A DNA stretch of 64,000 nt. It comes from an uncultured Alphaproteobacteria bacterium. Lineage in GTDB: Bacteria; Pseudomonadota; Alphaproteobacteria; Rs-D84. Positions 8,270 to 64,000 of this stretch are shown one piece after another (the first letter of the stretch is position 1; every line of letters begins with the position of its first letter). The notes under the pieces are model-generated. The model was given only the letters and a program-made list of their open reading frames with translations. It did not search any database and was not told the DNA's origin. The translations under genes and the position numbers were made by a program. The DNA is taken from positions 11,406 to 75,405 of the forward strand of contig CALXMA010000002.1 of NCBI GenBank assembly GCA_944389345.1, written 5' to 3'.

Positions 8270-8298
8270 TGTTATCCCCCGTTTAATGTTTAACGTGA

Positions 8299-9361: not shown

Positions 9362-9368
9362 AATTTTA

Positions 9369-9743: not shown

Positions 9744-9847
9744 TCTTCTCTCCTTTTTAAGTTTTGGGATAGAACAAACTTTTTTGTTCTTACTTATATT
9801 TTATATGAAAGAAAAAAATTAGTAAAGAAGAAAGTGCATTTTTTTCA

Positions 9848-10697: not shown

Positions 10698-10714
10698 AAT
10701 GTTTTCTTTGTTGT

Positions 10715-11125: not shown

Positions 11126-11150
11126 GTTTGGACAATTCCCGTATTCTTGT

Positions 11151-11210
11151 AAAAATAAAACGGGTCACACCGTGTGCGACCCGCAATAAAAAAACCGCAT
11201 ATTAATGCGG
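11151..11210 (-). terminator. Tandem terminators downstream of birA
   Basis: On the minus strand, CCGCAT-TAAT-ATGCGG is followed by TTTTTTT, and then GGGTCGCACACGGTGTGACCC is followed by a T-rich run. Confidence 0.6.
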
Positions 11211-11262
11211 ACAAAATTCTTCTTTTTGAATGCCCTTATTGTATCATATTTTCACATAAATG

Positions 11263-11943: not shown

Positions 11944-11944
11944 C

Positions 11945-17740: not shown

Positions 17741-17816
17741 AGTTATCTCTCTTTTTTTCAATTTTATCAAATAAAGCGTTTTGATTCAAGTCAGGATTTA
17801 TGATAAAATTAGAACA

Positions 17817-18824: not shown

Positions 18825-19019
18825 ATGGAAAACAAAGCAAAAAGTCCTTGGTTGGACGATCGACTGGATGCCGCAAAATCCGAAGCGGAACGCCAGGCTA
18901 TACTGAGAGAATGGGGCGAACAGAAACTGGAATACGCACGCCAAAGAGAAGAAGCGTGGCTGAACGGGCCGTCTTTGTTCGATAAAATAAAATCCCTGTT
19001 CCGCGGGAATCAGCGTTAA
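18825..19019 (+). CDS. Small hypothetical protein (64 aa)
   Basis: The ORF has an AAGGA SD and is followed by a terminator. Confidence 0.35.
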   Translation: MENKAKSPWLDDRLDAAKSEAERQAILREWGEQKLEYARQREEAWLNGPSLFDKIKSLFRGNQR

Positions 19020-19020
19020 T

Positions 19021-19048
19021 AAAAGGCGTCGTTTTGACGCCTTTTATT
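19021..19048. terminator. Bidirectional intrinsic terminator
   Basis: The hairpin GGCGTC-GTTTT-GACGCC is flanked by A and T runs. Confidence 0.65.
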
Positions 19049-19065
19049 ATTCCCATATTGGGATA

Positions 19066-34912: not shown

Positions 34913-35689
34913 ATGAGTTTTAATCGCACTTTTCCGTACTTTTTAACCAGCGCGGCTATGTTTTTTTCGACCGGTACACCGTTAAGTTCCAGTGTCAAAA
35001 GTTCTGGTGGTGTAATGGCAAACAAGTTCGTGCCGACGGCGCGTGTGGTTAACGTTCATCCTGACATCAGTCCGAACGATAGCCATAACGCAGATGCAAA
35101 ACCCGTCGCAGATGTAGTTATTGCCGAACATGTTATCCAGGCAATTGCACATAATAAGTATGATGTTGTATATACACGCGCGAACGGAAAACGCTTTAAG
35201 CGCAGTGGTGGTACACGCGCATGGCGCAATAATAACCCGGGATGCTTGCGGTATTCTGATTTCACAAAACAGTTGGGCGCCGTTGGTCGGGCCGGCGGTT
35301 TTGCCGTGTTCCCAGACGAAGAAACCGGTGCACGCGCAATTGCCACCCTGTTGCGGTCCGATGCGTACAGAAATCTGACCATGGCCCAGGCCATATATAA
35401 ATACGCACCGCCACACGAAAACAACACCAGAAACTATAACGCCAGACTGCGTGAAATGACCGGTTTGTCGTCATCTATGCGTATACGCGATATGAATGAC
35501 GCGCAATTGGCCAAAGTGGTCCAGGCCATCCGTGTTGTCGAAGGTTGGCGCGAAGGTAAAGAAATCGCCATGGCGTCTATTGAAATGCCAAAGCGCGAAA
35601 CAAAACGCGATACTATTAACTTTCAGGACGCTTTGCGCGACACAACAACGTTGATTGCCAATAATTTGGCCGCGCAACGTACACGTTAA
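34913..35689 (+). CDS. Hypothetical protein carrying a conserved [12 protein letters not shown] domain
   Basis: Residues 85-217 align with residues 234-362 of the 37447-38568 product. I cannot name the family with confidence. Confidence 0.5.
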
Positions 35690-37446: not shown

Positions 37447-38568
37447 ATGAATACAGAAACCATTATTAGATTATTACAAAATTCCGGATTCCACATCTTG
37501 GGGGCGGATGGGGCGTACTTGTATCTGGAAGATCCGTCTTGTATCCTGCGCAGTTTTTCTGATTTTCTGGAATATGCATGGGTTGTAATTGTATGTATTA
37601 CTGGGCTGTTGCTGTTTGGATGGGCAATATCCATGATACGGGGCGCAAAAAATGATATTTTTATCAATCTGCGTAATTTACTGATTATATTCGGAACATT
37701 GGCCGCGGTCGGACCAATTGTAAATCTGATTTTTGGCGATAATTTATTTGCACGTGGTTGCCGAACCATTCGGGTATCTTTGGATGAATTAAATACAGTA
37801 TTGGACGCACGTAATTTGAAACTGGCGCAATATGATGAATTTAATTTGTATGAAAATCTGGATATCGATGATTCTGGGGCATGGCAAGAAATGCCCTATG
37901 CCGATGCGCCGTTGGCGACATCTGATGTCCCCGCGGATTTGACCGATGTGTCCGTTACCCCGGATGGCAACGGCATTGTACGTACCCCGTTGTCTGACGA
38001 CAATGTACCAACTGATATGGCCGGGGACGCGACACCGAAATTAACCGAAACAACCGAAACGGATACCCCCACCAACGTGGGTTCTCCATCGCCAATTCCC
38101 GTATCAAACGCACGTCCAACGATGGCGCGCGCGTCAAATCGCGACGTGATATACACCAACGCGGACGGTTCCGCATTTCGCAAAATCGGCGGGACACGTG
38201 CATGGCGCAATACTAACCCGGGAAATATCAGATATTCTGAATTTTCACGACGTGCCGGTGCAATCGGCCAGGCCGGCGGTTTCGCCGTATTCCCAGATGA
38301 AGAAACCGGTATGCGCGCAATTGAATCACTGTTGCGCAGTGGCAGTTATAGTCGTCTGACCGTGGCCGGCGCAATCAGTCGATATGCCCCGCCCGTCGAA
38401 AACGATACCGCCGCATATCACAGAAAAATACAAAGACTGACCGGACTGTCTATTAATCGCAGAATGAGTGATTTAACCGATGCAGAACTGGCGCGGGTTG
38501 CGTCGGCAATTCGCACTATCGAAGGTTGGAAACCCGGAACCATTCGCAACGAAGGAAAAAGGAAATGA
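37447..38568 (+). CDS. Membrane protein with a C-terminal [12 protein letters not shown] domain
   Basis: It has two N-terminal TM segments (WVVIVCITGLLLFGWAI and LLIIFGTLAAVGPIVNLIF). The C-terminal domain is paralogous to that of 34913-35689. Confidence 0.5.
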   Translation: MNTETIIRLLQNSGFHILGADGAYLYLEDPSCILRSFSDFLEYAWVVIVCITGLLLFGWAISMIRGAKNDIFINLRNLLIIFGTLAAVGPIVNLIFGDNLFARGCRTIRVSLDELNTVLDARNLKLAQYDEFNLYENLDIDDSGAWQEMPYADAPLATSDVPADLTDVSVTPDGNGIVRTPLSDDNVPTDMAGDATPKLTETTETDTPTNVGSPSPIPVSNARPTMARASNRDVIYTNADGSAFRKIGGTRAWRNTNPGNIRYSEFSRRAGAIGQAGGFAVFPDEETGMRAIESLLRSGSYSRLTVAGAISRYAPPVENDTAAYHRKIQRLTGLSINRRMSDLTDAELARVASAIRTIEGWKPGTIRNEGKRK

Positions 38569-51182: not shown

Positions 51183-51902
51183 ATGAACAAAATTCAGGCA
51201 CTTGAAATATTTTGCAAATTTGTATTAAACGAAAATTTAATGCCCGCACAGATGGCACGTACTATAAAACTATCAAAAAAATATAGAAACAGTCATTCTG
51301 TAATCGCAAACTTGTTGTTGTATCGTGAAAACGCGGGTGCACATGTTGACGCTGATTTAGTCAACAATATGGACCTGGGGGGATTCGCATACGACGATGC
51401 GTTGGTTCAATGGCTGGGGACAATGGATGGGATATTGCACACCATCGCCGACGACGCGGGCGAACACTTGTTCGACAACAGTGATATGGTCATTGCCAGT
51501 GTAAAGACATTTATAAAAAATTGTGTACTGGTGGCGGACGATATTCGCGATGAATATTTAACCGGACCCAAAACGAACACGCAATATTATTATGATACAC
51601 TGGTTGTGCGCGATATTCGGACACAACGACAGAAAGAATTTGAATTCTATCTGGCACAAAACGCGTATAAAAGCACGACTATTAACGCGTACAAGTCGGC
51701 AATTAACACATTAAGCAAAGAGTTCAAAAATATAATCAATAATACCTATGGATTGTGGGGCGCGACGAATTTGACGAACCTGGCAGAAATGACTGACAAA
51801 TTCACGCACACAGATGCGTTTCACGAACTGGATGAAAAATCGCATAAAACGATGTCAAACGCCCTGAAACGCTATACCGAATTCATGCAAAATAGAGGAT
51901 AA
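51183..51902 (+). CDS. Hypothetical protein (239 aa), first gene of the HNH operon
   Basis: The ORF lies in an AT-rich context, 10 nt upstream of the HNH gene. I recognise no family. Confidence 0.45.
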   Translation: MNKIQALEIFCKFVLNENLMPAQMARTIKLSKKYRNSHSVIANLLLYRENAGAHVDADLVNNMDLGGFAYDDALVQWLGTMDGILHTIADDAGEHLFDNSDMVIASVKTFIKNCVLVADDIRDEYLTGPKTNTQYYYDTLVVRDIRTQRQKEFEFYLAQNAYKSTTINAYKSAINTLSKEFKNIINNTYGLWGATNLTNLAEMTDKFTHTDAFHELDEKSHKTMSNALKRYTEFMQNRG

Positions 51903-51912
51903 GGAATACAAC

Positions 51913-52575
51913 ATGGATACAAAACGTCTGCTGCACAGTATCGGTGCCACCACTTTCATTTTATGCTATGACGTATTCAAAAACAACTATGCCAGTAAAA
52001 CACGTAACGAACTGGCCACAATGTTGCCGGCACGTAATCCGAATTTACGCAGCAACGACCCAAACAATTCTTTGCCCAGAATTGCCAGTTTTGCAATACA
52101 ACTGTTTCGTGATGACGATCCTGTTGCGGCACTGGAACTGTGTACTAAATCAACGCGCCTGAATCCCGAACTGGTCGCAATGGCGCAACAACTGTTAACG
52201 CGAGAAAAATTCTGGGCCAATGTAAAAGACGATTTGAGCCCCATGGACAGCCGCCCTGCCCCAACCCCAATTATAAATGACACATCAACACAAAACCCGG
52301 CACCGGCGCCACGAACACAAATCAGTACATTTGCGTATAAGCGTAATCCAAAAGTTGTCGCCGCGGTATTAAAACGCGCAAACGGTAAATGCGAATGCTG
52401 TGGCGCACCCGCCCCGTTTATACGCCGGGGCGGCCCCATGGACGGCCAACCGTATCTTGAAGTCCATCACAAACAATGGCTGGTCGAAGGCGGTCCCGAC
52501 ACCGTCAATAATGCCGTTGCGCTGTGTCCCAATTGCCACTGTAACGAACACCACGGCGATCGCCATTATTTCTGA
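51913..52575 (+). CDS. McrA-type HNH endonuclease with an unassigned N-terminal domain
   Basis: The C-terminus FAYKRNPKVVAAVLKRANGKCECCGAPAPFIRRGGPMDGQPYLEVHHKQWLVEGGPDTVNNAVALCPNCHCNEHHG matches the HNH restriction-type pattern. Confidence 0.75.
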   Translation: MDTKRLLHSIGATTFILCYDVFKNNYASKTRNELATMLPARNPNLRSNDPNNSLPRIASFAIQLFRDDDPVAALELCTKSTRLNPELVAMAQQLLTREKFWANVKDDLSPMDSRPAPTPIINDTSTQNPAPAPRTQISTFAYKRNPKVVAAVLKRANGKCECCGAPAPFIRRGGPMDGQPYLEVHHKQWLVEGGPDTVNNAVALCPNCHCNEHHGDRHYF

Positions 52576-53072
52576 TGGCGCGCGGCGTATGTTCGTCTAT
52601 GCCATGGCGTGGGCCAAATCGTTCATTAACAATATTATCAGCATGCCAAGAATGCACGTCACTGGAACCCTGAAAATAGAATCTATATCAACAAACATTT
52701 CTCTCTTCCTTATCAAACGACAACCCATAGGTGTTTATTCACACTTTAACACGCATTACGTTAACAAACAACACAAAAATTAAAAAATACGCAAAAATTC
52801 AATAAAGCAAACAATTAATACTTGATTTTATCGTTTATATCGCGCAACAGTACACATATACTATAAGTTGTTAAAAGATAAAATATACCGTAATACTATA
52901 TAACCCGACCATACGTTTTATATTTTTCTGGTAATTGATTAATTGTATCTATTTCATAATTGCATTTATAAAAAATATATGTAAAATACTAAGGCTGTTT
53001 GTAGTTGACATGCAGGCATTCCAAAACGATACGACAATATGTCAGATGCGTTTTGGGATTGCCAACAGCAGT

Positions 53073-53111
53073 TTTGGATGGGTGGCAGAGCGGTCGATTG
53101 CGACGGTCTTG
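53073..53111 (+). repeat. Orphan copy of the tRNA-Ser 5' half (through anticodon position 35)
   Basis: The 39-nt sequence TTTGGATGGGTGGCAGAGCGGTCGATTGCGACGGTCTTG is identical to 53226-53264. It diverges after the UG of the UGA anticodon. Confidence 0.85.
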
Positions 53112-53228
53112 CATACGAGTCAGCAAGACAAGCGTAGCGCTGTCGAGCGTGAACGAGTGGTGAACAGCACCGCCAGGTGCGAACAGTGAACAAAACCGTA
53201 GGTTTGAAAGACCGGCGGCAAAAGGTTT

Positions 53229-53318
53229 GGATGGGTGGCAGAGCGGTCGATTGCGACGGTCTTGAAAACCGTTGTGGGGGCAACCCCACCGGGGGTTCGA
53301 ATCCCTCCCCATCCGCCA
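53229..53318 (+). tRNA. tRNA-Ser (UGA), CCA encoded
   Basis: It has acceptor GGATGGG/CCCATCC, anticodon loop CUUGAAA, a long variable arm (GTGGGGGCAACCCCAC) and T-loop TTCGAAT. Confidence 0.9.
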
Positions 53319-53327: not shown

Positions 53328-53410
53328 CACATCCCGTGGTAATCACACGGGATGTTATTTTTCGCCCCGTTTCCGCCGTTTTTTATTGCCCGCCGCGTGC
53401 GCGGTTTTTT
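53328..53410 (+). terminator. Stacked intrinsic terminators after tRNA-Ser
   Basis: ACATCCCGTG...CACGGGATGT is followed by a T run. A T-rich segment follows, and then CCGCG-TG-CGCGG is followed by T8. Confidence 0.6.
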
Positions 53411-53433
53411 TTATTTACAAAAAGGAATCATAA

Positions 53434-54561
53434 ATGAAAACACCACAATTTTTGCGGCAACTTATGTCGTCATCCGAATATATGGATAAAAACAGCAAGG
53501 TGTATGCCATGGCGGAAAAATACCTGAATTTGCTGTATCCTGGCGCGGCACAACTTGACGCCACCGGTCGCATGACCGAACCCGAATACGATATGACATT
53601 AGAGCAATTTCGTATGGCCCAAAAGGCATTAGAGTCTGCGCTAGAAGAAGCAAAGCAAGAAGCTGAAGCGGAATATGAAGAAACCGGTCGCCAGATAGAT
53701 GTTGAAGACGATGTAGAATTAGAAGAAACCATAGATGTTCGCGTTCTTATGCCGTTGGGTACAATAGAAAATAAACAGCTAGAGGTTTATACCCTTGATC
53801 TGCCAGAAGACGATGATGATACGCCAAATAACAAAACGCGGCGCGTGTGGCGTTGGCACAGTGAGGATGGCGATAACACCTGTGATGAATGTGCATCGCG
53901 CGATGGCGAGATATATGACAGCGAAGAAGATATCCCGGAAATCCCGGTACACCCGAATTGTCGCTGTACAATAACAGAGGATGTAATAGGTCCAGATGGG
54001 CGCACACTAAGCAGTAAACCGTATTCGCCAAAGAAGTCAACAATTGTGACCGAAAAAGCGACCAATACACCAGCAGAAAAAGCAACCTTTGAAAAGCCGG
54101 TTAATACTAAACCCGGTTACTATGCAGTATTTGATGGCAAGAGATTTACATTGTATATAGATAATAAACCGGTAATCTCATGGGAAGCGGTGTCCGGTCG
54201 TTCCGGTTACCAAAGCCCAGAATATCAAGACCAGAAATCCACAGGTCCAATCCCAGAAGGAACGTATGTTGCAAGACAGGAAAAACTACAGTTTATGTCT
54301 GCTACAGATTGGCTTGTTGGCTGGACGACTAAAGTTACTGATAGGGGTGCTTGGCCCGGGTCTTCAATGTCTTGGGGAAGCTCGCGTGTCTGGTTAGAAC
54401 CAGCAAAAGAAACCAATACCTATGGTCGTGATAATTTCAGCATTCATGGCGGCTGGGCGCCTGGGTCTGCCGGTTGCATTGATATGACAAGTAATATTAA
54501 AAATTTTGTTGCGCTATTCGAATTTGTCGGTAAAGATTTAATTGTAGAGGTAAAATATTAG
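53434..54561 (+). CDS. Polymorphic toxin: MuF/SPP1-gp7-type motif fused to a Tlde1-like (DUF2778, L,D-transpeptidase-fold) toxin domain
   Basis: Residues 136-179 read RRVWRWHSEDGDNTCDECASRDGEIY...IPVHPNCRC, the Phage_Mu_F signature. Residues 228-375 read AVSGRSGY...STGPIPEGTYV...WLEP...GRDNFSIHGGWAPGSAGCID, which contains the His ... S-x-G-C catalytic pattern of Tlde1/YkuD-like enzymes. Confidence 0.7.
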   Translation: MKTPQFLRQLMSSSEYMDKNSKVYAMAEKYLNLLYPGAAQLDATGRMTEPEYDMTLEQFRMAQKALESALEEAKQEAEAEYEETGRQIDVEDDVELEETIDVRVLMPLGTIENKQLEVYTLDLPEDDDDTPNNKTRRVWRWHSEDGDNTCDECASRDGEIYDSEEDIPEIPVHPNCRCTITEDVIGPDGRTLSSKPYSPKKSTIVTEKATNTPAEKATFEKPVNTKPGYYAVFDGKRFTLYIDNKPVISWEAVSGRSGYQSPEYQDQKSTGPIPEGTYVARQEKLQFMSATDWLVGWTTKVTDRGAWPGSSMSWGSSRVWLEPAKETNTYGRDNFSIHGGWAPGSAGCIDMTSNIKNFVALFEFVGKDLIVEVKY

Positions 54562-54574
54562 GGACTAATGTAAC

Positions 54575-54913
54575 ATGAAAATAAATTGGCAAAAAACCAT
54601 GTATTGCAATGCTGTGATTCTGTGGGGGGCATTGTTTGCGTTTTTGATTGATTTATCGGCAATGGGACGTATTGCAAAATACGATGAAGTATGGTGGTAC
54701 TTTTGTAGTGATTTATCTGAAAAATCACGATATTTATGCATGGCTAACTATGATGTTGTCAGTATTATATGTGTATTGGCAGGACTCGTGTTTCTTACAT
54801 ATAAACTAGTCCCTGTATATAAAACACGATTGTTATGGATGCCATTAGCAGGATTATTTATAGGGATTTTTGTCTGGCCGATAATTCAATCGCTATTATA
54901 TTGGTTAATGTAA
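54575..54913 (+). CDS. Multi-pass membrane protein, candidate immunity protein
   Basis: It is a 112-aa protein with 3-4 hydrophobic helices. It starts 13 nt after the toxin's stop codon on the same strand. Confidence 0.45.
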   Translation: MKINWQKTMYCNAVILWGALFAFLIDLSAMGRIAKYDEVWWYFCSDLSEKSRYLCMANYDVVSIICVLAGLVFLTYKLVPVYKTRLLWMPLAGLFIGIFVWPIIQSLLYWLM

Positions 54914-55009
54914 AATATAATTGATGAAGAAGTATTTTGATTTTATTGGCAGTGTTGTATGTCTGGCTTTGTTCTTGTTTTTTTATACGATGATAACCAA
55001 ATGGTCAGT

Positions 55010-55435
55010 TTATAAATGCACAATTTCGGTATCTGGGATTTGTTTCGCAATATATTCGGTCGCGAGGCGGCGGTGGCATTGCAGTGCGGATTTTTCAGTG
55101 CATAACAGGCAAATGCGGTCAATGTCGATCGGGGCGAGTTCTGTGGTCGGATTGCGTGCGACCAGTAATTCGCGATACATTTTTTCATAATCGGACCAAC
55201 TGATGGCACCGTTTTTATATCCTGTCAATATTTCTGTGGTTGGTGCAAATTCGGGATGGTATTCGTAACGCGCGCCCAATACTGTGGCCAGATTTTCACC
55301 ACTGTAAAACGGAACGTACGCGCTGGCGCGCCACAGGCGTATGTCCCACACGGCGCGAACGCGTACCGCATTCAGGACTTCCATAAACGCGTCTGGGCTT
55401 TTACCACTGAAACCAATTGTGAATATTTTTTGCAT
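55010..55435 (-). CDS. DUF488-family protein
   Basis: The sequence MQKIFTIGFSGKSPDAFMEVLNAVRVRAVWDIRLW...LLCTEKSALQCHRRL matches the DUF488 pattern. Confidence 0.7.
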   Translation of the reverse strand: MQKIFTIGFSGKSPDAFMEVLNAVRVRAVWDIRLWRASAYVPFYSGENLATVLGARYEYHPEFAPTTEILTGYKNGAISWSDYEKMYRELLVARNPTTELAPIDIDRICLLCTEKSALQCHRRLATEYIAKQIPDTEIVHL

Positions 55436-55588
55436 ATCGCCATAATTATGTTGTGAAATTTGTCCATAATCAACCATCAATTGTTATCATTACCTGGCAT
55501 GCACGGGTGGCAATGAATTCCAGTTCAACAACACGTAAATGGCCTGTAATCATCATATCATATTCACCAAACGTGTATTATTTATTGA

Positions 55589-57259
55589 TTATACAATATA
55601 TTTGTTATATATTTTTGCCCATTTAAATAGGACATAAAGACCCCATATGGCCGTATAATCAGTATATTCTTTCAACGGTTTATTTATCAAATTTAATAAT
55701 TCTGGTTGTGAAACATTAAATAAATTACACAAAGATGTGTTGTTAAATGTACGTGTTATATCTTTGTGCAAACATCCGTCAATCCAATCGATCCAAGGCG
55801 ATGTAAATGGTTGTTTTTTACGGTTTACTATATCTGATGGCAATATATTGCTAAAATTTTCAATAAGTAGTTGTTTAGGCGGATTTGTGTAAAGCTTTCT
55901 TAAAGGAACTCCATATAAATAATTAACAATATCTTGGGACAAAAAGGGAACGCGACCCTCAATTGAACTGGCCATTGTCATTTTATCTAATCTAAACAAA
56001 TGATAGGCTGGTAATCTATAGTTGCGTTCAAAATCCATTATTGATTTCAAAGGCTCTTTAGAATTTTTTATTAAACGTAAATCACGTGTTTGTGTGTTGA
56101 ATAGTTTATTTTTAATTGTAGGCGACAACCATGCTATTTGCTGTTTATAGGTTTGTATTTCTTTTCCTGCATTATTCATGGCGGTTCGTATATAATTATA
56201 CCCGATGAACATTTCGTCTGCCCCATCGCCACTGATAATACCTTTGACATATTTTTTCGCAGATTTTGCCAACAAAAAAGTACTTATTGAGACAGTAGAA
56301 TATAAAGGTTCTTCTAATGACAAAATGGTTTTATCAAAAGTGTTTTTTATAATATTCTTTTGTGCATAAACTATATGATGTATTAAATCCTGTTTTTCTG
56401 CGACAAGTGTTGCAAACCTTGTTTCATCAATATGTTCATTTACATCATATTTTATTGTAAAAGCGTGTCTTTTGCCTTTTAATATTGTATTCAATATACT
56501 GGAATCCAAGCCACCACTTAAAAAAGTGCCTATTTTTACTTCTTGGCTGTCATAATTGTTGATGCTTTTTACCCATGTTTTTAAACTTTGTGTCGGTTTA
56601 ATATTTATTTTGTACTTTGATTTTTTGATGTTATGTTGGCTTATTTCTAATATTTGACAGGGTTCAATTTTGAAAATATCAGAAAATATAGTTAGCGGAT
56701 GTGCGATAAATCTATATTGCAAATAACTTGCTAAACCAGGCTTTGAAATCTCATGTTTCCCTGAAATCTTTAAGATAGGTCTTAATTCAGAACTAAAAAC
56801 AAATTTACCATCTGATAAAAAAGAATAATATAACGGTTTTATTCCAAATTTATCAGAAAACAATAATAATTTATCTTTATCCATAATAGCGATTGAAAAC
56901 ATACCATCAAGATACTTTACGAAATTTTTACCGTATGTTTCATACATCGGGATAATAATGTCCGCGTCATTATACTTTTTGTCTGAAACGATGTTTAAAC
57001 CTAAATTTTTTCGTAAATCTAGATGATTATATATTTCACCGTTAAATACACATAAAATATCGTTTTTTGTATTAGAGTGTACACGTGTCGGTGTTTTTAC
57101 AGAATTCATTGATAAACGCGTTAACCCCAAAGATACGAAATGATGATGTTTATACGCCTTACCATCGGGACCACGATGCTTCATGGCACGTAACATGCGT
57201 TTTACAAGTCGCTTGTTATCATGTTTGGATATATCAAAAATTCCGGCAATTCCACACAT
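55589..57259 (-). CDS. Asparagine synthase (glutamine-hydrolysing)-family amidotransferase
   Basis: It has the N-terminal nucleophile MCGIAGIF and the PP-loop FLSGGLDSS. Confidence 0.85.
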   Translation of the reverse strand: MCGIAGIFDISKHDNKRLVKRMLRAMKHRGPDGKAYKHHHFVSLGLTRLSMNSVKTPTRVHSNTKNDILCVFNGEIYNHLDLRKNLGLNIVSDKKYNDADIIIPMYETYGKNFVKYLDGMFSIAIMDKDKLLLFSDKFGIKPLYYSFLSDGKFVFSSELRPILKISGKHEISKPGLASYLQYRFIAHPLTIFSDIFKIEPCQILEISQHNIKKSKYKINIKPTQSLKTWVKSINNYDSQEVKIGTFLSGGLDSSILNTILKGKRHAFTIKYDVNEHIDETRFATLVAEKQDLIHHIVYAQKNIIKNTFDKTILSLEEPLYSTVSISTFLLAKSAKKYVKGIISGDGADEMFIGYNYIRTAMNNAGKEIQTYKQQIAWLSPTIKNKLFNTQTRDLRLIKNSKEPLKSIMDFERNYRLPAYHLFRLDKMTMASSIEGRVPFLSQDIVNYLYGVPLRKLYTNPPKQLLIENFSNILPSDIVNRKKQPFTSPWIDWIDGCLHKDITRTFNNTSLCNLFNVSQPELLNLINKPLKEYTDYTAIWGLYVLFKWAKIYNKYIV

Positions 57260-58455
57260 TATTTGTTAACCAATTTATTAAATTCACAGAATAGTTTTTC
57301 AGCTGTTTTTTCCGGGGAATATTTATGTGCCGATACAAAACATTGTTCTGACATTTGTTTTACAAAATTATCATTCGTTCGCAGTTTAGAAATAATTTTA
57401 TTTAATTGTCTTTTGTTTTTATACAATAAAGATTGCGGAACAAACTCTGGAAAAGCGGCCATGTTTGGGGCAACAACTGGTATGCCCAGCCCCATACAAT
57501 CCATACAAGCCATAGACCAAACACATGCTTTGCGCAAAGGTGCGAAACACGCAAAACCAGAATTCAATATTGATTTATATTCAATTCTGGTTTTATTATT
57601 TTGTGCAATGCTTATACCTGGCGTTTTTGACATAATTTTTGCAAAATCTGCGGGGGTGTTATTTTGTGATGCACGCTTTAGACTACGTTTTTGCATAGGG
57701 TCAAGGACAATGCAATTTATACCAAATTGTTTGTGTAATCTAGCAAAAACATCAATAAAATCTTGTGTTCCGTAAGTTTTATACAAACGATGGTTATATA
57801 TATAGTTTTCTCTGTTTGCTAATGTTGTGATATATCTGTTCTTTTTATCTAGAAATAACGGATCTGCTGGCGGGGCTAGCACAATAAATTTTTTAGAATC
57901 ATATGGAACTTTGTAATATTTTGCCGCTTTAACTATGAGTGATTTAGCAAATTCGCTTTGTATAATAAACAAATCAGACGTCTGTAATGCTGTCAATATA
58001 TCAAAAACAATTTTATTGCCCAGGTTCCCAGTATTAAGACTTTGGTCTATTTCTGGAATTCGTAATTTCATATTATTTGCCCACAATGCCGGATAATGAC
58101 AATATGTGACGATTGGTATATCTAATTTATTCCATACTAATACACTACGAATTGCAGAAGTTAGTTCAACCTGGGTATTAAATATCACATCTGGTTTTAC
58201 TTTTTGTATTAATTTTGCGATTTCATCTGAATTAAAATCAAATCTGGACGAAAATTTATTAGTACCCAGATTTATATATTCTTTCCCGCATTTTAATTCC
58301 TTGGCTTGTTTAAATTCAGGACAATTTGCCCCGGCGACAATATATTTATGGCCCATCTTTTTAAACTGGCTGGATAATATACATTGAAATATATAGCCAG
58401 AATCACAGCTAATATTATCTTTGTTAGATATATTCAATATAGATAAAATTTTCAT
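57259..58455 (-). CDS. Glycosyltransferase, GT4-like (GT-B fold)
   Basis: The C-terminal half reads FAPLRKACVWSMACMDCMGLGIPVVAPN, analogous to the E..G...lEAma.G.PvV motif. Confidence 0.65.
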   Translation of the reverse strand: MKILSILNISNKDNISCDSGYIFQCILSSQFKKMGHKYIVAGANCPEFKQAKELKCGKEYINLGTNKFSSRFDFNSDEIAKLIQKVKPDVIFNTQVELTSAIRSVLVWNKLDIPIVTYCHYPALWANNMKLRIPEIDQSLNTGNLGNKIVFDILTALQTSDLFIIQSEFAKSLIVKAAKYYKVPYDSKKFIVLAPPADPLFLDKKNRYITTLANRENYIYNHRLYKTYGTQDFIDVFARLHKQFGINCIVLDPMQKRSLKRASQNNTPADFAKIMSKTPGISIAQNNKTRIEYKSILNSGFACFAPLRKACVWSMACMDCMGLGIPVVAPNMAAFPEFVPQSLLYKNKRQLNKIISKLRTNDNFVKQMSEQCFVSAHKYSPEKTAEKLFCEFNKLVNK

Positions 58456-59762
58456 TTTGATACTTTTGCCCCCAATTTTATTAAATTTTCAATAAAACCA
58501 TCGTATCCACGTGTTATATTATCTATGTTTGTTATTTTAACTGTTTTGCCAGATTTTATTGCAGCAATACACAAAACCGCCGCAGCACGGGTGTCTGTCG
58601 CGTTCAGATTTATATCGGTTTGTAAAATATTGTGTTTATATGGTCTTATAATAATTTTATTTGAATACCTTTTAATAGAACAACCCAATTTATTTAATTC
58701 GGGTACGTACGCAAAACGAGAACGCCAAACAGTTTCTTTGATAACAGATTTATCGTTTGCAAACGATAACAGTAATGTCATAAACGGCTGATGATCACTT
58801 TGGATACCTTTATGCGTTATTGTAATCTCAGTACCAGATAACTGTTTTTGCTTTGGAACAATAATTTTATTATTTTTTAAGACAAGATTTACACCCATTT
58901 TATGTAATATTTTTAATTCTGGATATAATATATTTTGTAAGACATCTAAATTTGTAACACGAATAGTTAATTTTATATTATTTACAATAGCCAAAGTAAT
59001 AAAAGTCATTACTTCACTTTGACAATCTGATAAATTATAAACCATATTATCCGGTATGTTTTTGTTTTCTGTATTGATTATCAGTCTGTTGTGTATTTGT
59101 TTTATATCAATTCCACATAATTTTGCAAACTTTAATAAATCGTAAACATCGGTTCTGAAATAATAGTTTTTTATTATAGTCTTTGTATGTTTAGTTCCAA
59201 CGGCAACCAATATACATAATTTTGTTGCACTGCTAACCTTTTCACCAGTCAGACGGAACATACTGTCCGAAAACCGTTTAATATTTTGAACAATCTTTGT
59301 TTGTTTACAAGGTTTCCAGGAATACTCTATTTTATTTAACTTTTTCGTGGTTCCAAAAGAATTCAAAATATCTATCAGATGATTGTAAGGACGTACGCCT
59401 TGGGTACTTATGTTGCAGCCACCTGTTGGTACAACAGGAAACATGTGAAACCTTATTGCCAAAGCGAAAATAAAATACAAAGCCCCATGAATTTTATTAC
59501 ACAATTTATCATCAATTCGTCTATATTTTATGGACTTGGTATCCAGATATACTGTATTGTTTTTGAAACTGGCCTTACCGCCAAGTTTAATTATCAGCTT
59601 GCACAATATATTCGTATCATCGGTTTTGGGGACGTTGTGTATTATGCATTTAGTATTAAAAATTATTGTTGCGGCAACTAATTGAACAAAAGAGTGTTTG
59701 TGGCCTAAAACCTTTATCGTTTTAGCAGATTTTAATTTTGATGGTTTTATAACTATATTCAC
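58452..59762 (-). CDS. MurA-like enolpyruvyl transferase (EPSP synthase fold)
   Basis: It is 436 aa. The N-terminus is IKPSKLKSAKTIKVLGHKHSFVQLVAATII, and the Cys loop PTGGCNISTQGVRPYNHLIDIL is comparable to the MurA Cys115 loop. Confidence 0.7.
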   Translation of the reverse strand: MNIVIKPSKLKSAKTIKVLGHKHSFVQLVAATIIFNTKCIIHNVPKTDDTNILCKLIIKLGGKASFKNNTVYLDTKSIKYRRIDDKLCNKIHGALYFIFALAIRFHMFPVVPTGGCNISTQGVRPYNHLIDILNSFGTTKKLNKIEYSWKPCKQTKIVQNIKRFSDSMFRLTGEKVSSATKLCILVAVGTKHTKTIIKNYYFRTDVYDLLKFAKLCGIDIKQIHNRLIINTENKNIPDNMVYNLSDCQSEVMTFITLAIVNNIKLTIRVTNLDVLQNILYPELKILHKMGVNLVLKNNKIIVPKQKQLSGTEITITHKGIQSDHQPFMTLLLSFANDKSVIKETVWRSRFAYVPELNKLGCSIKRYSNKIIIRPYKHNILQTDINLNATDTRAAAVLCIAAIKSGKTVKITNIDNITRGYDGFIENLIKLGAKVSK

Positions 59763-59766
59763 AATA

Positions 59767-60360
59767 TTACCTTTGTTTAACCATGTAGTTATCTACACAT
59801 TCTAATAAACTGTTTGCAATCGGTATTGATAAATTCTGGGCAATTGCAATATGTTCTTTGTTTTGTGGCAGGCTTATAAAAACAGCATCATGTCCACAAC
59901 TGATAGCGTCTTGAATATTAAAAATGCTGTCATCTATTACAATACCATTTGGCAATTTCTTATATTGGGTCATTTTATTTGCCCACCCAAGTGGCAATAA
60001 TATGATATCATCAAACACATCACCAAATGCGTTATGTAAATTTTGCAATCTGTTGTTTCTGGCAACAGAATTTGTAGATATAGAACTTATCACAGAGAGT
60101 GAGGCACCAGTATTTTTTAATTTTTGAATTGCGGCCTTAGCACCAGAAATTGCAGGTACTTCTATAAAATAATGCGTTTGTGTAAACAATTCCGTGGATT
60201 TATTAAAATCCAGCCCCGAATTTGCTGGAAACACCCAATGGCTGGGATAAGCATTTTTATTAACAATTATATTGCATTCTTGCTGTAAAAACAGCGCATG
60301 AGTTTGGGCGGTTTGTAATAAAACCTCGTCACAGTCCAAATAAACATTGCGCCAGTTCAT
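59767..60360 (-). CDS. HAD-superfamily hydrolase, 5'(3')-deoxyribonucleotidase-like
   Basis: HAD motif I is YLDCDEVL, with VIDDS as motif IV-like. The ATG at 60360 is preferred. Confidence 0.55.
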   Translation of the reverse strand: MNWRNVYLDCDEVLLQTAQTHALFLQQECNIIVNKNAYPSHWVFPANSGLDFNKSTELFTQTHYFIEVPAISGAKAAIQKLKNTGASLSVISSISTNSVARNNRLQNLHNAFGDVFDDIILLPLGWANKMTQYKKLPNGIVIDDSIFNIQDAISCGHDAVFISLPQNKEHIAIAQNLSIPIANSLLECVDNYMVKQR

Positions 60361-60367
60361 ACGCAAA

Positions 60368-61396
60368 ATGGTAAAACCTATATTTATAAAGTCAAATAAT
60401 TTGTTGATTTTTCGGCACTTTGGACCTAAAATTAAACACGTGGACAAGAAAAAACAACAACAAATTGAAAAATTGCTTGGTGTTGACATCGTTTCAGCAG
60501 AACGAATCGGTGGGTTTTCTGCCGAAAATTATATTGTAAAAACAAGAGACAATCATGAATTTGTGGCAAAAATTTTACGAAACAATGCAAATGCATATGT
60601 TGAACAAATAGAAACAGTAAGTCGCTTGTTCAACAACAAAAGTGGTAAATTTTTTACGAAACCGATCAAAGAAGATGTTCAGCACAGAATTATTATATCC
60701 AAATTTATCAAAGGCGATGTATTACACGGTGATGATATAAAAGAATGTTTTTATAAGCCTGTCGCAAAAGTTTTAAAACATTATGAACATATAGAGCCGA
60801 ATAATAACCTGAAGACCAGTTTTGATTTATATTTCAATATAAAGGCAAGTCAGGATAAAATTAATGATACAAAAAGAAAACTAAAAAAGACAGATTCCTA
60901 TTACGAACTGGTAAAAAACATCTTGGAATTAAAAACTTCTATATTGAATAAATACAAGAAAAATGATGATTTGGTTAAATGGATAAAAAGTTCCAATTCG
61001 TTCGTTCACGGTGATTTTCATAATGAAAATATATTGTTTTCTAAATCTGGTGTAAAGGCGATATTAGATTTTGAGCTGTCTCACAAAGGGAATTCTGCAG
61101 AAGATATGGTGAACTTTGTTTGGTTTGCTTTTTTAAATAATGACTTGTCAGATAAATCATTATCCAAGGCACACGATTTCTTAAAAACATGTGAAAATGT
61201 AACAAAAGTTTCCAAAACAGATTTAGAAAATGCTTTCAAATTGACGTTTTTACGTTTCGTTCAATCATCCGTACTAGAAAATTCGTTAATTGAATATAAA
61301 GAACCTTTTTATGAAGGTTTATTGCAAAGAGATTTGAAAAAATTTAAAGAAATTGATAATCATATGCAAATTATATTAAATAAATTATTAGCATAA
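60368..61396 (+). CDS. APH/choline/sugar-kinase-family phosphotransferase
   Basis: Motifs seen are HGDFHNENILF and ILDFELSH. An alternative start is the GTG at 60440. Confidence 0.65.
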   Translation: MVKPIFIKSNNLLIFRHFGPKIKHVDKKKQQQIEKLLGVDIVSAERIGGFSAENYIVKTRDNHEFVAKILRNNANAYVEQIETVSRLFNNKSGKFFTKPIKEDVQHRIIISKFIKGDVLHGDDIKECFYKPVAKVLKHYEHIEPNNNLKTSFDLYFNIKASQDKINDTKRKLKKTDSYYELVKNILELKTSILNKYKKNDDLVKWIKSSNSFVHGDFHNENILFSKSGVKAILDFELSHKGNSAEDMVNFVWFAFLNNDLSDKSLSKAHDFLKTCENVTKVSKTDLENAFKLTFLRFVQSSVLENSLIEYKEPFYEGLLQRDLKKFKEIDNHMQIILNKLLA

Positions 61397-62229
61397 TGGA
61401 AAAGAAAGTATCTGTTATTATTTTGACTCATAATTCCTATAAAGACAAAGCCGGTTCCATAGAATTTGTCATAAATGCATATCTGCAACAAAAACATACA
61501 CCTCTTGAAATTATCGTTATTGATAACGCATCTGATGTCGATAATTCTGCAAAACTACAGTCTTTTTGTGCAGACAAAAAATTTGTACATATTGTTAAAT
61601 GTAATGCAAGTATAGGTGGTGCCAGAAATCTGGGTGTTAAACATTCAAAGGGAAAATATATAATATTTAATGATGACGATACTATCCCAATTCAAGACGA
61701 TGTATTAGAAATTGTTTCGCAATATTGTGATAATGGACAATATGGATACGGCGCAAACAGACTATGGAGCCCCGATATAAATTGGATAAAATCTCATGAG
61801 TCTAAGATAAATATTGCAATAGAAAATAAAAACTGGGATTTTTTACGTAAAATTTATCAAAGGCCATCTCAAGACATAAGACACAAAAATGAAATCTCTG
61901 TAAAAATGCTTACCCGGTCATTTATAGGAAATTTTGGTTTTATATCTGTTAAAGATTTTATTACTGTTGGGGGCTTTCCGGAATATCATGGGTATGGATG
62001 TGAAGACGATGCTTTCGCCTTTTTGTGTTATTTGAAACTTGGCAAACCAGTTATATTAAATGATAAAATCTCGGTATTGCATATTTCTCACCAAATTAAT
62101 GCCATAAATTTACAACAGTTGGAAACTAACAAGATTTTATTACAAAAATTGTTTGAACAACACGGTTATAAACACTTTCATATAAGCAGAGTGTTATTTC
62201 CATCCGACAAACCTGTTATCGACTACTGA
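61396..62229 (+). CDS. Glycosyltransferase family 2
   Basis: Motifs seen are VSVIILTHN, IIVIDNASD, GGARNLG and IIFNDDDT. The ATG overlaps the kinase stop codon. Confidence 0.8.
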   Translation: MEKKVSVIILTHNSYKDKAGSIEFVINAYLQQKHTPLEIIVIDNASDVDNSAKLQSFCADKKFVHIVKCNASIGGARNLGVKHSKGKYIIFNDDDTIPIQDDVLEIVSQYCDNGQYGYGANRLWSPDINWIKSHESKINIAIENKNWDFLRKIYQRPSQDIRHKNEISVKMLTRSFIGNFGFISVKDFITVGGFPEYHGYGCEDDAFAFLCYLKLGKPVILNDKISVLHISHQINAINLQQLETNKILLQKLFEQHGYKHFHISRVLFPSDKPVIDY

Positions 62230-62288
62230 TAGCAAAATTTATTGACTTTGACTATATTTGTTCTATTTTTACACAAAAGGCTTGAAAT

Positions 62289-63713
62289 ATGTCACATCAA
62301 CCTATAACTATTACTAATTTATCTCTAGATTTTCCGCACAAAGTATGTTTTGAAGGTTTTAACACACAAATATTGCCCGGTGACAGAATAGGAATAATCG
62401 GTCGTAACGGAAGTGGTAAATCGTCATTAGTCAAAATGTTGATGGGACAAATGGACCCTTCTGGTGGCAAAATTACAAATATTGATGATTTGACTGTTGG
62501 ATATGTTCCGCAAACTGTTTTGGAACACACCGAATTAAGTGGTGGTGAAAGATTTAATAAAGCATTTACAGAAGCTATCGCCACACAACCAGACTTGCTT
62601 ATTCTTGACGAACCTACAAATCATCTGGATCAAAATGTAAAATATTCTTTGTTGCGCAAGTTGGACGGTTACAATGGTACTTTGATAATAGTCAGCCATG
62701 ATTTGGACGTTTTGACACATACTGTTGATAAATTATGGCACATCAAAGACGGAAAAATAGTCGTATTTTCTGGTGATTATGATGATTACATGTATGAAAA
62801 TGGTTTAGCGTTGGCGTCCCAACAAAAAATACTTAACGATTTAAAAAAAGAAAAGAAAAAACTGAAAATTCAACGTCAACAAGAATCTCAAAAAGCCGGC
62901 AAAGCAGGTAAAAAGAAAGCCAAAGATAATGACAAATTGGGATTTGATGCAAAATCAGACAACGCGCAAGCCAAAGCAGATGCAAAAATCGCTAAATTAA
63001 ATGAACGCCTTGGGAATGTACAAAGTTCTTTGCAACAAAATCGTTTACCAGAAGAATATAAATTAAAATTCAATATTGACAATGCGTATGTGCAATCTGG
63101 TGCTAATTTAGTTTCTGTTTCTTTTGGTGAATGCTCTTATGGTGCACATATAGTTTTATCTGACGTATTCTTTTCTATGGCACCAATGGACAAGGTTTCG
63201 ATAAGTGGTAATAATGCCTCTGGTAAAACAACTTTTATAAAAGCAATAATGCAAAATAAATCAGTAAATGTTTCTGGTGATTGGTTTTTGCCAAAGCCAT
63301 CAGATATTGGATATTTGGAACAACATTACACCAATTTAAATCCAGACGATACAGTAGAGGAAGTCATACAAAAACATGCCCCATCAATGGACGCAAAGGC
63401 AATTCGTAAACACTTAAACGATTTCTTGTTCCGTAAAAACGAAGAAGTGTTCGCGAAAGTAAAAACATTATCTGGTGGAGAAAAAGCAAGATTATCTTTG
63501 GCTCAAATTGCGGCAAGACCTCCTAAGCTGTTAATATTAGATGAAATTACAAACAATATCGATTTAGAAACAAAAGAATACATTATTTCTGTGCTGAATG
63601 CCTATGCAGGTGCATTTATAATAGTATCACACGAAAATGGCTTTTTAGATAGATTGAATTTAACAAACAGATATTTTATACAAAATGGTTCATTAAAACA
63701 AAAATTTAGGTAA
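62289..63713 (+). CDS. ABC-F family ATPase (two ABC domains, no transmembrane domain)
   Basis: It has two Walker A sites (GRNGSGKSS and GNNASGKTT), two signature motifs (LSGGER and LSGGEK) and a Lys-rich interdomain linker. It is 474 aa. Confidence 0.85.
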   Translation: MSHQPITITNLSLDFPHKVCFEGFNTQILPGDRIGIIGRNGSGKSSLVKMLMGQMDPSGGKITNIDDLTVGYVPQTVLEHTELSGGERFNKAFTEAIATQPDLLILDEPTNHLDQNVKYSLLRKLDGYNGTLIIVSHDLDVLTHTVDKLWHIKDGKIVVFSGDYDDYMYENGLALASQQKILNDLKKEKKKLKIQRQQESQKAGKAGKKKAKDNDKLGFDAKSDNAQAKADAKIAKLNERLGNVQSSLQQNRLPEEYKLKFNIDNAYVQSGANLVSVSFGECSYGAHIVLSDVFFSMAPMDKVSISGNNASGKTTFIKAIMQNKSVNVSGDWFLPKPSDIGYLEQHYTNLNPDDTVEEVIQKHAPSMDAKAIRKHLNDFLFRKNEEVFAKVKTLSGGEKARLSLAQIAARPPKLLILDEITNNIDLETKEYIISVLNAYAGAFIIVSHENGFLDRLNLTNRYFIQNGSLKQKFR

Positions 63714-63722
63714 TGAATTATA

Positions 63723-64000
63723 AAAATTATTTATCTGCAACATGTATAATAAAAAACGAAGCGGAATATATGCCTGAATGGCTTGAATATCATTTGTTGG
63801 TTGGCTTTGAAAAGTTCTATATATGATAACGGCAGCACAGATAATATAAAGCAAGTTCTTGCCCCGTATGTTGATGCCGGCATACAAAGATTGTGTAAAC
63901 AAACATAAAAATGATACTTTCTGGTTGGCAGTGATTGATATAGATGAATTTGTTGTAGCAGATTGTAAAAATAATGATGGACGTGTATATTCATTTGGTA
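63723..64000 (+). pseudogene. GT92/DUF23-like glycosyltransferase, frameshifted (continues beyond the window)
   Basis: Frame 1 gives CIIKNEAEYMPEWLEYHLLVGFEKFYI then a stop at 63834-63836. The expected continuation DNGSTDNIKQVLAPYVDAG is in another frame, and FWLAVIDIDEFVV is in a third frame. Confidence 0.55.

Follow-up and report, generated by a model that had tools for sequence, protein, structure and literature searches.

Exchangeable cell-wall-attacking modules in a predicted polymorphic toxin family of Candidatus Enterousia and their possible link to a domesticated T7-like particle

We analysed a 64-kb stretch of DNA from an uncultured alphaproteobacterium (the whole stretch is called the window below) together with a comparison set of about 100 related loci of Candidatus Enterousia (order Rs-D84), asking what is encoded by a gene pair at 53434-54913 that an initial annotation had described as a polymorphic toxin with a Tlde1-type killing domain and its membrane immunity gene. 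The core of that description holds, as different C-terminal domains alternate on the same N-terminal domain (N-domain) in relatives, and the toxin–immunity reading of the pair, which is built on sequence comparison, is well supported and very probably correct. The family appears to be a true polymorphic toxin system, apparently confined to Candidatus Enterousia and its Rs-D84 relatives. As the best explanation of the whole, we favour with modest confidence a modular antibacterial effector with an exchangeable module, expressed as part of a regulon and delivered as the cargo of a particle.

A Tlde1-type toxin module followed by a small membrane protein

The toxin open reading frame (ORF; 53434-54561, + strand) starts with an ATG 115 nt past a tRNA-Ser(UGA) gene (53229-53318) and encodes 375 amino acids. 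Its C-terminal part, residues 228-375 (54115-54561 with the stop codon, + strand), is a Tlde1-type toxin domain of L,D-transpeptidase fold by four lines of analysis: Pfam, residue conservation, Foldseek and a family profile. The Pfam model Tlde1_dom (PF10908/DUF2778) matches residues 251-364 with 36.7 bits, above its gathering score of 30.1, and YkuD matches residues 230-366 with 25.5 bits against a cut-off of 23.4. His338 and Cys348, which had been singled out in the initial annotation along with the domain, are invariant in 104 homologues of the toxin, as are C150, C153, C176 and C178 further upstream in the protein; H173 is kept in at least 90% of the same homologues.

Comparison of the family profile with the PDB retrieved Salmonella Tlde1a (7uma, E = 7.7e-5), with 'fsihGG..gsaGCid' of the profile aligned with 'FYIHDSTKGYSHGCIEV' of the Salmonella protein and with His338 and Cys348 of the toxin aligned with its IH...HGC motif. 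A full-length AlphaFold model built from the 104 homologues (predicted local distance difference test, pLDDT, 72.7) likewise gave Tlde1a as its top Foldseek match (7uo8, E = 4.4e-6). The structures 7uo8 and 7uma stood first in the ranking, with a probability of 1.0 and a template modelling (TM) score of 0.58 on the target; modelling quality was poor in the variable loop at residues 289-313. By these sequence and fold criteria the module is Tlde1-type, and L,D-carboxypeptidase/transpeptidase activity is predicted for it.

The cognate immunity candidate (54575-54913, + strand) encodes a protein of 112 amino acids (aa) with three transmembrane helices by hydropathy. A loop of ~30 aa containing two Cys residues lies between helices 1 and 2 on the predicted periplasmic side, and Lys/Arg residues lie on the predicted cytoplasmic side. 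The protein has no Pfam match; five related loci encode versions of it with 94-100% identity.

Different cell-wall-attacking modules alternate on one N-domain

Full-length homologues of the toxin, 591 in number and 50-90% identical to it, occur in metagenome-assembled Alphaproteobacteria from gut and rumen, and a scan of one genome per species identified the carriers as Candidatus Enterousia and unnamed relatives. Hosts of the order Rs-D84 have genomes below 1 Mb, possess neither flagella nor respiration and, by prediction, rely on partner cells (PMC12306168). The genome scan turned up many loci with a match to residues 1-200 alone or to residues 205-375 alone, and several genomes contained two loci. 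The N-domain was found in none of 2.9 million IMG/VR viral contigs. Tlde1-like genes that do occur in IMG/VR prophages belong to unrelated high-GC elements without the N-domain and were uninformative.

We typed the C-terminal regions of 63 N-domain proteins and the window protein by clustering, and found four types on one N-domain of ~200 aa: Tlde1 in 30 related loci and in the window, Phage_lysozyme type A (n = 16), GH108 with PG_binding_3 (n = 10) and Phage_lysozyme type B (n = 7). Peptidase_M23 is present on more distant short MuF-motif proteins, and all payloads observed in the family target peptidoglycan. The Tlde1 module itself is found on two further N-termini and hence on three in total; one of these carriers has a shorter N-terminus with the same Zn-ribbon and PG_binding_1, and the other has an N-terminus with a different Cys motif and PG_binding_1. 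At a conserved chromosomal site beside frr-uppS-cdsA-rseP-bamA the module type differs between genomes, and some genomes carry at least two toxin loci with different modules.

Partner genes travel with the toxin modules

Each Tlde1 module is followed, at a spacing of -3 to +23 nt, by the gene for a small three-helix membrane protein, lysozyme-A modules are followed by a ~120-aa beta-rich lipoprotein, and the other module types have secreted partners. Several genomes additionally hold promoter-less C-terminal toxin fragments without the N-domain, each with an intact partner gene after it. Among these orphan fragments are some 95-98% identical to the window toxin, followed by 95-100% identical copies of the 112-aa gene. 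In locus L008 (1921-2292), for example, the fragment is 98% identical to the window toxin and the product of the next gene is 100% identical to the window 112-aa protein; the same pattern is seen in L024 and L032, and L024 likewise holds a 100% identical copy of the 112-aa gene. The three helices and the position of the membrane protein behind the toxin module, orphan cassettes included, bear out the earlier proposal of a membrane immunity gene at 54575-54913.

DNA comparison separates the history of the module from that of its carrier. Between the window and L024 the N-domains are 96.6% identical and the toxins differ, and the orphan cassette of L024 is 98.5% identical to the window; between the window and L008 the orphan cassette is 99.4% identical and the N-domains 91.7%. 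In loci with N-domains 86-91% but toxins only 55-71% identical, the partners are just 15-36% identical. Toxin types and partner types form associated clusters, with an adjusted Rand index (ARI) of 0.28-0.69 when toxins are clustered at 25-35% distance and a permutation maximum of 0.12-0.18; at the coarsest toxin clustering the association with partner clusters is absent (ARI 0.01-0.07). Partner proteins diversify far faster than the enzyme. Judged by these comparisons, inheritance of the small membrane protein follows the toxin module and not the N-domain.

Traces of cassette turnover lie directly downstream of the window pair. A junction sequence of ~85 nt that recurs between cassettes in relatives (54900-54984, + strand, found by DNA comparison) matches L024 at 11628-11711 and at ~12248-12332, the latter being the end of a longer match at 11714-12332; the first position is found also in L005 (11558-11638) and L032 (11628-11711). 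Overlapping it is the frameshifted remnant of a second small membrane gene of the immunity family (54921-55190, + strand), recognised by matches in two frames: its residues 1-23 resemble the N-termini of 105-aa immunity-family proteins, and residues 21-89 match in a different frame in L024 and L005. This remnant is the only orphan material in the window; orphan modules are present in L008, L024, L032, L222 and others. Locus L222, from a strain with an identical toxin protein, has an orphan array where the window has the remnant. That array (L222 1778-2928), located behind the immunity gene, comprises an orphan Tlde1 fragment and a further two small membrane genes, and L115 (10158-11302) has three consecutive immunity-family genes, so immunity gene arrays differ between strains.

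These observations also bear on two explanations in which the pair is no weapon. We reject a housekeeping cell-wall enzyme, since orphan cassettes exist, several alternative domains occupy one site and the partners evolve fast. The pair could instead be part of a particle, either a lysis cassette of endolysin and holin or a virion-associated hydrolase for DNA entry: a hydrolase that lacks a signal peptide, with a small membrane protein encoded next, resembles an endolysin–holin pair, every alternative domain is a typical phage lysin domain, and the pair stands in the same regulon as particle genes (see below). We consider this improbable, given that the lysozyme-A partner is a beta-rich lipoprotein and not a holin, that arrays of two to three partner genes and promoter-less orphan cassettes are unsuited to a lysis module, that some genomes hold at least two loci with different modules, that partners outpace the enzyme in diversification and that an endolysin has no need of a 200-aa carrier domain.

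The carrier combines a family-specific region with a MuF-type Zn-ribbon

The N-terminal region of the toxin, residues 1-135 (53434-53838, + strand), is strongly conserved and family-specific, with just 42 representative proteins matching at E ≤ 1e-10. Its secondary structure comprises helices within residues 5-34, a long acidic helix at 56-84 and a beta-hairpin at 94-121, and a structure search with a model of residues 1-200 alone (pLDDT 81) returned no match for residues 1-135. A MuF-type Zn-ribbon follows at residues 136-185 (53839-53988, + strand), with partial matches to Pfam, TIGRFAM and PHROG head-morphogenesis families and with the residues W139, W141, H142, C150, C153 ... H173, N175, C176 and C178.

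The initial annotation had placed a MuF signature at residues 136-179. The motif residues are indeed there; membership of the MuF family does not follow from them, since Phage_Mu_F (PF04233) reaches 25.8 bits, under its gathering score of 29.6, in a partial match of profile positions 61-111 of 112 to residues 134-180, and TIGR01641 reaches 27.4 bits, under its cut-off of 39.65. PHROG head-morphogenesis families and phage genomes match ~50 Zn-ribbon residues and nothing else of the toxin, and structural matches of the Zn-ribbon to minor capsid proteins are local, covering 45-75 columns only. The 'MuF' part of the toxin is thus a small Zn-ribbon module corresponding to the last third of a MuF domain, not a MuF domain. 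Between it and the toxin module lies a Lys/Pro/Thr-rich linker, residues 186-227 (53989-54114, + strand), with pLDDT below 50. The recombination junction between N-domain and toxin module is at the 3' end of this linker, with DNA homology breakpoints at 54032, 54140 and 54187.

Family members share a promoter–terminator leader with phage-like genes

Nearly every family member carries a leader composed of TTGAttttt, a spacer, an extended -10 element TgTGaTATAAT, ~15 nt, two successive GC hairpins with a T-run after each and a ribosome-binding site (RBS). Of the five pairs in hairpin 1, two have undergone compensatory changes. In 1.29 Mb of Enterousia DNA we counted 105 instances of the promoter pattern, 84 of which are accompanied by both hairpins.

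We trained a covariance model exclusively on leaders of N-domain toxins (n = 49); searched over 310 kb, it gave 30 matches at E ≤ 0.05, 29 of them upstream of a toxin gene, a MuF-motif gene, an Mtd_N gene or a gene of one uncharacterised family; the remaining match, the weakest (L046 10868-11036, E = 0.032), was left out of the gene-class assignment. Besides the N-domain toxins themselves, the matches include the two remaining toxin types at 62-106 bits, 201-aa proteins whose MuF motif is significant in Pfam (58-107 bits), and proteins of 187-197 aa that contain the tail-fibre domain Mtd_N (38-53 bits, lowest E = 6e-7). Of the matches assigned to a gene class, none stands ahead of a housekeeping gene. 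The same leader is carried by a ~187-aa family without a Pfam match (53-69 bits; L013 8980-9543 and L047 11463-12032). The toxins therefore probably share a regulon with tail-fibre-like and MuF-motif genes. A strong promoter placed immediately before two terminators implies expression by antitermination, a mechanism that coordinates the loci of gene transfer agents (GTAs) in Caulobacter (PMC11150451) and Bartonella (bioRxiv 10.1101/2024.11.20.624540).

Two further searches with the leader were discarded. The pattern used in a metagenome scan was too loose, 77 of the 80 loci retrieved being unrelated promoter-plus-terminator sites; these sites (550 kb) then served as the negative control for the covariance model. 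A match of the model at 18972-19088 in the window is just the terminator region after priA. Separately, two window proteins without a Pfam match (34913-35689 and 37447-38568) share a ~130-aa domain that forms the N-terminal part of the 201-aa MuF-motif proteins, and the second of the two is membrane-anchored.

The window copy has lost its promoter

In the window, the leader is truncated (53374-53433, + strand, by the covariance model and by alignment with relatives). It retains the 3' arm of hairpin 1 with its T-run, hairpin 2 (53392-53405) with its T-run and an AAGGA RBS 8 nt before the ATG, and it lacks the promoter and the 5' arm of hairpin 1; the covariance model, at 53347-53431, accordingly matches with model positions 46-113 only (34 bits). 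Relatives with the same tRNA-Ser retain the tRNA, its hairpin, the spacer, the promoter and both leader hairpins, and their alignment exposes a deletion in the window exactly where they have a near-consensus promoter. DNA homology to the relatives begins at 53374-53380, and at ~53374 the hairpin that follows the tRNA is fused to the 3' arm of hairpin 1. That hairpin is terminator-like, with a 10-bp stem (53329-53355) and a T-run (53329-53365, + strand), stands directly after the tRNA and is kept with loop changes in L223, L222 and L036. The initial annotation had counted three stacked terminators and no promoter of the gene's own. Two of the three, the hairpins with T-runs at 53329-53355 and 53392-53405, are confirmed and the third is the leftover 3' arm with its T-run; the missing promoter is confirmed as well.

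The tRNA-Ser gene itself (anticodon UGA, same strand as the toxin; ARAGORN, and Rfam tRNA at 57 bits) is accompanied, 153 bp upstream of the intact gene, by a 47-nt duplicate of its 5' half up to the anticodon loop (53070-53116, + strand; direct repeat D1, 94% identical to 53223-53269). This copy may be a recombination or integration scar at the tRNA. Location behind a tRNA is common in the family: 36 of 55 toxin genes in loci L004-L081 lie at most 700 bp downstream of a co-oriented tRNA gene, with six identities represented (three Ser isoacceptors, an Ala-His pair, an Asp-Glu pair and Lys), and no integrase was found near these tRNA-linked genes in the same loci.

From its sequence, the window copy has lost its promoter and can only be transcribed by read-through from tRNA-Ser. 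The same promoter-less junction is present in two independent assemblies with an identical protein, one of them behind a different tRNA-Ser, which rules out an artefact; selection may have favoured an arrangement that depends on tRNA read-through. The position behind terminators without a promoter, together with the frameshifted immunity remnant after the gene, could also be taken to mean that the window copy is the decaying leftover of a lost prophage, neither expressed nor delivered any more. Against such decay stand an intact ORF with all invariant residues present, the identical protein and the same junction in at least three assemblies, the absence of the family from recognised viral contigs and the 591 full-length homologues in genomes below 1 Mb, where useless genes are lost (PMC12306168), and we regard it as highly improbable.

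A T7-like head-tail cluster in the same window

The region 19-11266 holds the genes of a domesticated T7-like element. Its head-tail genes (4197-11125, - strand; Pfam and PHROGs) encode a 136-aa hydrolase-like protein, a T7-type scaffold (9848-10615), a capsid protein (8299-9168), tail tube A (7461-7982), a 572-aa tail protein (5727-7445), a 115-aa protein, a 182-aa protein resembling the N-terminal part of a fibre (4777-5325) and the ATPase half of the terminase (4197-4820). The nuclease half of the terminase (19-942, - strand; Pfam Terminase_6C) is set apart from the ATPase half by three genes on the other strand: dnaB (494-2434), a double-helix-turn-helix regulator (2463-3509) and a 219-aa gene (3534-4193), the first two recognised by Pfam DnaB and HTH_3. 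In relatives, the genes beyond the window start encode a 407-aa portal (PF12236) and then Bbp19.

The gene order of the cluster is identical in four other Enterousia genomes. The capsid protein has 4519 homologues, some on contigs of up to 1.06 Mb; the best 120 of the 4519 are 78-100% identical, all but one of them at least 81%. When the window is compared with a ruminant genome, the capsid proteins are 82% identical, the terminase ATPases 74%, the DnaB proteins 62% and the LplA proteins 56%. The cluster is not a self-contained prophage, in that dnaB separates the two halves of the terminase, all genomes examined have the cluster at one and the same chromosomal site, and no integrase or replication module was seen in them. 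Synteny and host-like divergence therefore argue for a domesticated particle module that is fixed, vertically inherited and under purifying selection, rather than for a decaying prophage. It looks like a GTA-like domesticated element of podovirus ancestry. The earlier label of a podovirus-like remnant is accordingly dropped in view of the synteny in four other genomes, the vertical inheritance and the portal just beyond the window start; the earlier statement that there is no prophage head module fits the toxin neighbourhood only, as the window contains the head-tail cluster.

The nearest cultured relatives of the cluster are T7-like Pelagibacter podophages, with portals 28-33% identical. Phage T7 has large internal core proteins, one of them with a wall-cutting domain; the cluster lacks such proteins. 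Neither did we find homology between the 182-aa fibre-like protein and the Mtd_N proteins.

The cluster has a leader of its own (11136-11266, - strand), made up of a TTGACA-17-TATGATACAAT promoter and two hairpins with T-runs ahead of the first gene. Its promoter (11266-11238, - strand) is the sole full match to the family promoter in the 64-kb window, and L095 and L097 have leaders of this architecture at the equivalent position, built from other stem sequences, so that it recurs in three diverged genomes. Several terminator-like hairpins with T-runs lie in the gap between the scaffold and capsid genes (9170-9420, - strand). Terminator-like sites inside the cluster would fit a need for processive antitermination over its full length. 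A sequence search of the PDB with the product of the conserved 219-aa gene returned nothing and so yielded no candidate antiterminator.

Proposed mechanism and routes of delivery

The mechanism we propose starts from what the comparisons show, a ~200-aa carrier, made up of the family-specific N-terminus and the Zn-ribbon, to which exchangeable modules that attack peptidoglycan are connected through a flexible linker. New toxin–immunity pairs are kept as promoter-less orphan cassettes, which move into the expressed gene by recombination at the linker and at short junction repeats. Family members would normally be off, with two tandem terminators behind a strong promoter, and the leaders strongly suggest that antitermination would induce the toxins together with tail-fibre-like genes, the small MuF-motif protein and probably the T7-like cluster. 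Because the toxins have no signal peptide and all modules attack the cell wall, we infer delivery into the periplasm of another cell, where the periplasmic Cys loop of the immunity protein would block an incoming toxin of the same type. The Zn-ribbon carrier would load the toxin into the domesticated particle, from which it would be ejected into the target envelope.

Delivery as particle cargo is the leading route, and we advance it tentatively. It draws on the presence of the Zn-ribbon module in capsid-internal proteins elsewhere and on the lack of T7-type internal core proteins in the element, and the initial suggestion of packaging by the podovirus-like genes, once the notion of a remnant is set aside, finds indirect support in the leader that the toxins share with tail-fibre-like genes and in the similar leader of the cluster. 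In full, Enterousia would possess an antitermination-switched T7-like particle with scattered genes, armed with exchangeable cell-wall-destroying cargo that docks via the Zn-ribbon, and immunity proteins would spare kin; this complete picture is a possibility that we hold with more doubt than conviction. Such a phage-derived, strain-specific toxin injector possibly doubles as a GTA, in bacteria with genomes below 1 Mb that probably depend on other cells.

Several points weigh against this reading. The MuF similarity extends over ~50 residues only and stays below family cut-offs, the window toxin copy has no promoter and may be silent, and toxin loci were never adjacent to the head-tail cluster in the loci examined. 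No MuF protein was found in the nearest cultured podophage; as the T7-like Pelagibacter podophages have none, docking at the portal is not inferable by descent. Cluster leaders are among the best full-length matches of the toxin-trained covariance model (38.2 bits in L097, 26.7 bits in the window and ~23 bits), and the control on 550 kb of unrelated promoter-plus-terminator sites gave chance matches of 34-37 bits, so the link between cluster leader and toxin leader is architectural and positional, not statistical. Over the whole set, toxin divergence and immunity divergence are only weakly rank-correlated (rho 0.13-0.23), which we ascribe to the quick saturation of immunity proteins and for which reason cluster association and near-identical cassettes were used as evidence instead. 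Finally, shared regulation does not prove physical packaging: Pseudomonas has soluble pyocins and tail-like pyocins in one regulon.

The last point leads to a soluble bacteriocin of the pesticin, colicin M or S-pyocin kind, whose N-domain would bind a receptor and carry the enzyme across the outer membrane of the target and which would be released on lysis, co-regulated with the particle and unpackaged. Its architecture is that of the family, in which the N-terminus is conserved, the killing domain can be exchanged and an immunity gene lies downstream; the periplasm is where all payloads act, the toxin genes are unlinked to the head-tail cluster, the T7-like relatives are devoid of MuF proteins and the shared leader shows co-regulation only. 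We nevertheless think a bacteriocin unlikely, for the sole recognisable feature of the N-domain is a module otherwise belonging to head-internal phage proteins, this Zn-ribbon recurs in a second, unrelated N-terminus and in the 201-aa regulon protein, and no TonB-box, Tol-box, lysis gene or receptor-binding fold was recognised.

Contact killing through type IV (or other) secretion, with the N-domain as secretion signal, is quite improbable. The model would be the X-Tfe/X-Tfi pairs of Xanthomonas, in which cell-wall hydrolase effectors with lipoprotein immunity resemble the pairs of this family, and an isolated VirB11/T2SSE-type ATPase (17781-18776) in the window and a weak VirB8-like protein adjoining bamA in relatives could be its traces. 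Yet no VirB4, VirB9, VirB10 or VirD4 gene was seen in the window or any locus and there is no XVIPCD-like C-terminal signal; the conserved part of the toxin is N-terminal and has a phage-head motif, and its leader is common to tail-fibre-like genes. The VirB8-like neighbours of bamA, a weak match with no accompanying type IV genes, were kept just as a lead for this rival. Together with the ATPase they may represent a scattered type IV system, as in Rickettsiales.

Neighbourhood of the toxin locus

A DUF488 gene (55010-55480, - strand; Pfam DUF488, 61 bits) lies downstream of the pair in the window, and homologues are found beside the toxin locus, on either side, in 17 related loci. Just upstream of the tRNA, 51183-52575 encodes an uncharacterised 239-aa protein and a 220-aa HNH endonuclease. 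Since related toxin loci have no counterpart of either one, we take the segment as a variable insert, possibly defence-related; L001 has a type I restriction system at the equivalent position. From 55589 to 64000 the GC content of the window falls from ~45% to ~31%, and the genes there encode an asparagine synthase-like protein, a GT4 glycosyltransferase, an EPSP-synthase-family enzyme and an APH-type kinase. This segment is probably a horizontally acquired surface-glycan island.

Significance

There is a real chance that the window toxin belongs to an as yet undescribed system. Polymorphic toxin systems would gain a new carrier domain, a new payload class consisting exclusively of periplasm-acting cell-wall enzymes, and a new immunity type in the form of tiny three-helix membrane proteins. 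The toxins are kept and diversified in bacteria that have genomes below 1 Mb and are thought to live off other cells, where they may serve to attack partners or rivals. The shared leader offers a sequence-searchable handle for defining a regulon in an uncultured lineage, and this regulon would tie the toxin cassettes to a conserved podovirus-derived head-tail cluster. If the link to the particle is true, the cluster would be the first GTA-like element of T7 ancestry and the first with polymorphic toxins, and the long-standing proposal of MuF-type toxins inside capsids would become directly testable.

Comparison with known systems

MuF polymorphic toxins (Jamet et al. 2017, PMC5576092; Zhang et al. 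2012, PMC3482391) and the window family have in common an N-terminal element of head-protein type, exchangeable C-terminal toxins, a small downstream ORF of less than 150 aa and a proposed delivery in phage capsids. They differ in that the window family has only the last ~50 positions of the MuF profile, below cut-off, behind a new domain of 135 residues, and in that its genes are neither next to a portal nor in a prophage or IMG/VR contig: housekeeping genes flank them in 81 loci, and the portal operon of the T7-like element has no N-domain gene. Whereas the payloads of the window family are all periplasm-acting cell-wall enzymes, Jamet et al. describe, for example, nuclease toxin domains, and their main text mentions no peptidoglycan-targeting domain (PMC5576092). 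The hosts differ too, being reduced-genome Alphaproteobacteria here and Firmicutes for MuF toxins. By domain and context the window toxin thus falls outside the MuF toxin family, and it probably works like one of its members.

With the Tlde1/Tldi1 pairs of type VI secretion systems (T6SS; Salmonella Tlde1a, PMC9638812) the window pair shares the L,D-transpeptidase-derived fold, the His...Cys motif, the peptidoglycan target and the cognate immunity gene directly downstream. Here, however, a 227-aa carrier-plus-linker precedes the C-terminal toxin module, the immunity protein has three membrane helices instead of being Sec-exported, soluble and periplasmic like Tldi, and the His before Gly-Cys is Ala (SAGC versus SHGC). 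T6SS, VgrG, Hcp, PAAR or Rhs genes were absent, as initially annotated, from the annotated parts of the window, and also from the 10 kb around the toxin genes in 81 loci, whole genomes not having been searched. The exclusive tie of Tlde1 to T6SS drawn at first has to be loosened, as Tlde1 domains also occur in phage proteins.

Loci of contact-dependent inhibition (CDI), Rhs and MafB systems resemble those of the window family in their promoter-less C-terminal fragments and intact immunity genes arrayed downstream, in near-identical cassettes behind diverged N-domains and in short repeated junctions. Unlike them, the window family has much smaller proteins (~375 aa) without repeats, in which profile and structure searches recognised no trafficking or secretion domain, and its loci stand behind tRNA genes with a leader of promoter and double terminator.

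GTAs controlled by antitermination (Caulobacter GafYZ, PMC11150451; Bartonella BrrG, bioRxiv 10.1101/2024.11.20.624540) are likewise encoded by a vertically inherited, phage-derived head-tail cluster on an alphaproteobacterial chromosome, with dispersed accessory loci and with terminators behind the promoter and inside the cluster. The Enterousia module differs in being T7-like (podovirus) where GTAs are siphovirus-like, in having its terminase split into two genes around dnaB and in that its particle, packaging and antiterminator are predicted ones. In the searched literature, polymorphic toxin–immunity cassettes are reported in the regulon of no GTA.

Phage T7 gp16 is an internal core protein with a cell-wall-cutting domain that is ejected into the target envelope. 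An infectious phage needs gp16 for its structure, and gp16 shows no polymorphism and comes without an immunity partner. The window toxin has no sequence relationship to gp16, and a gp16-like ejection is what we propose for it.

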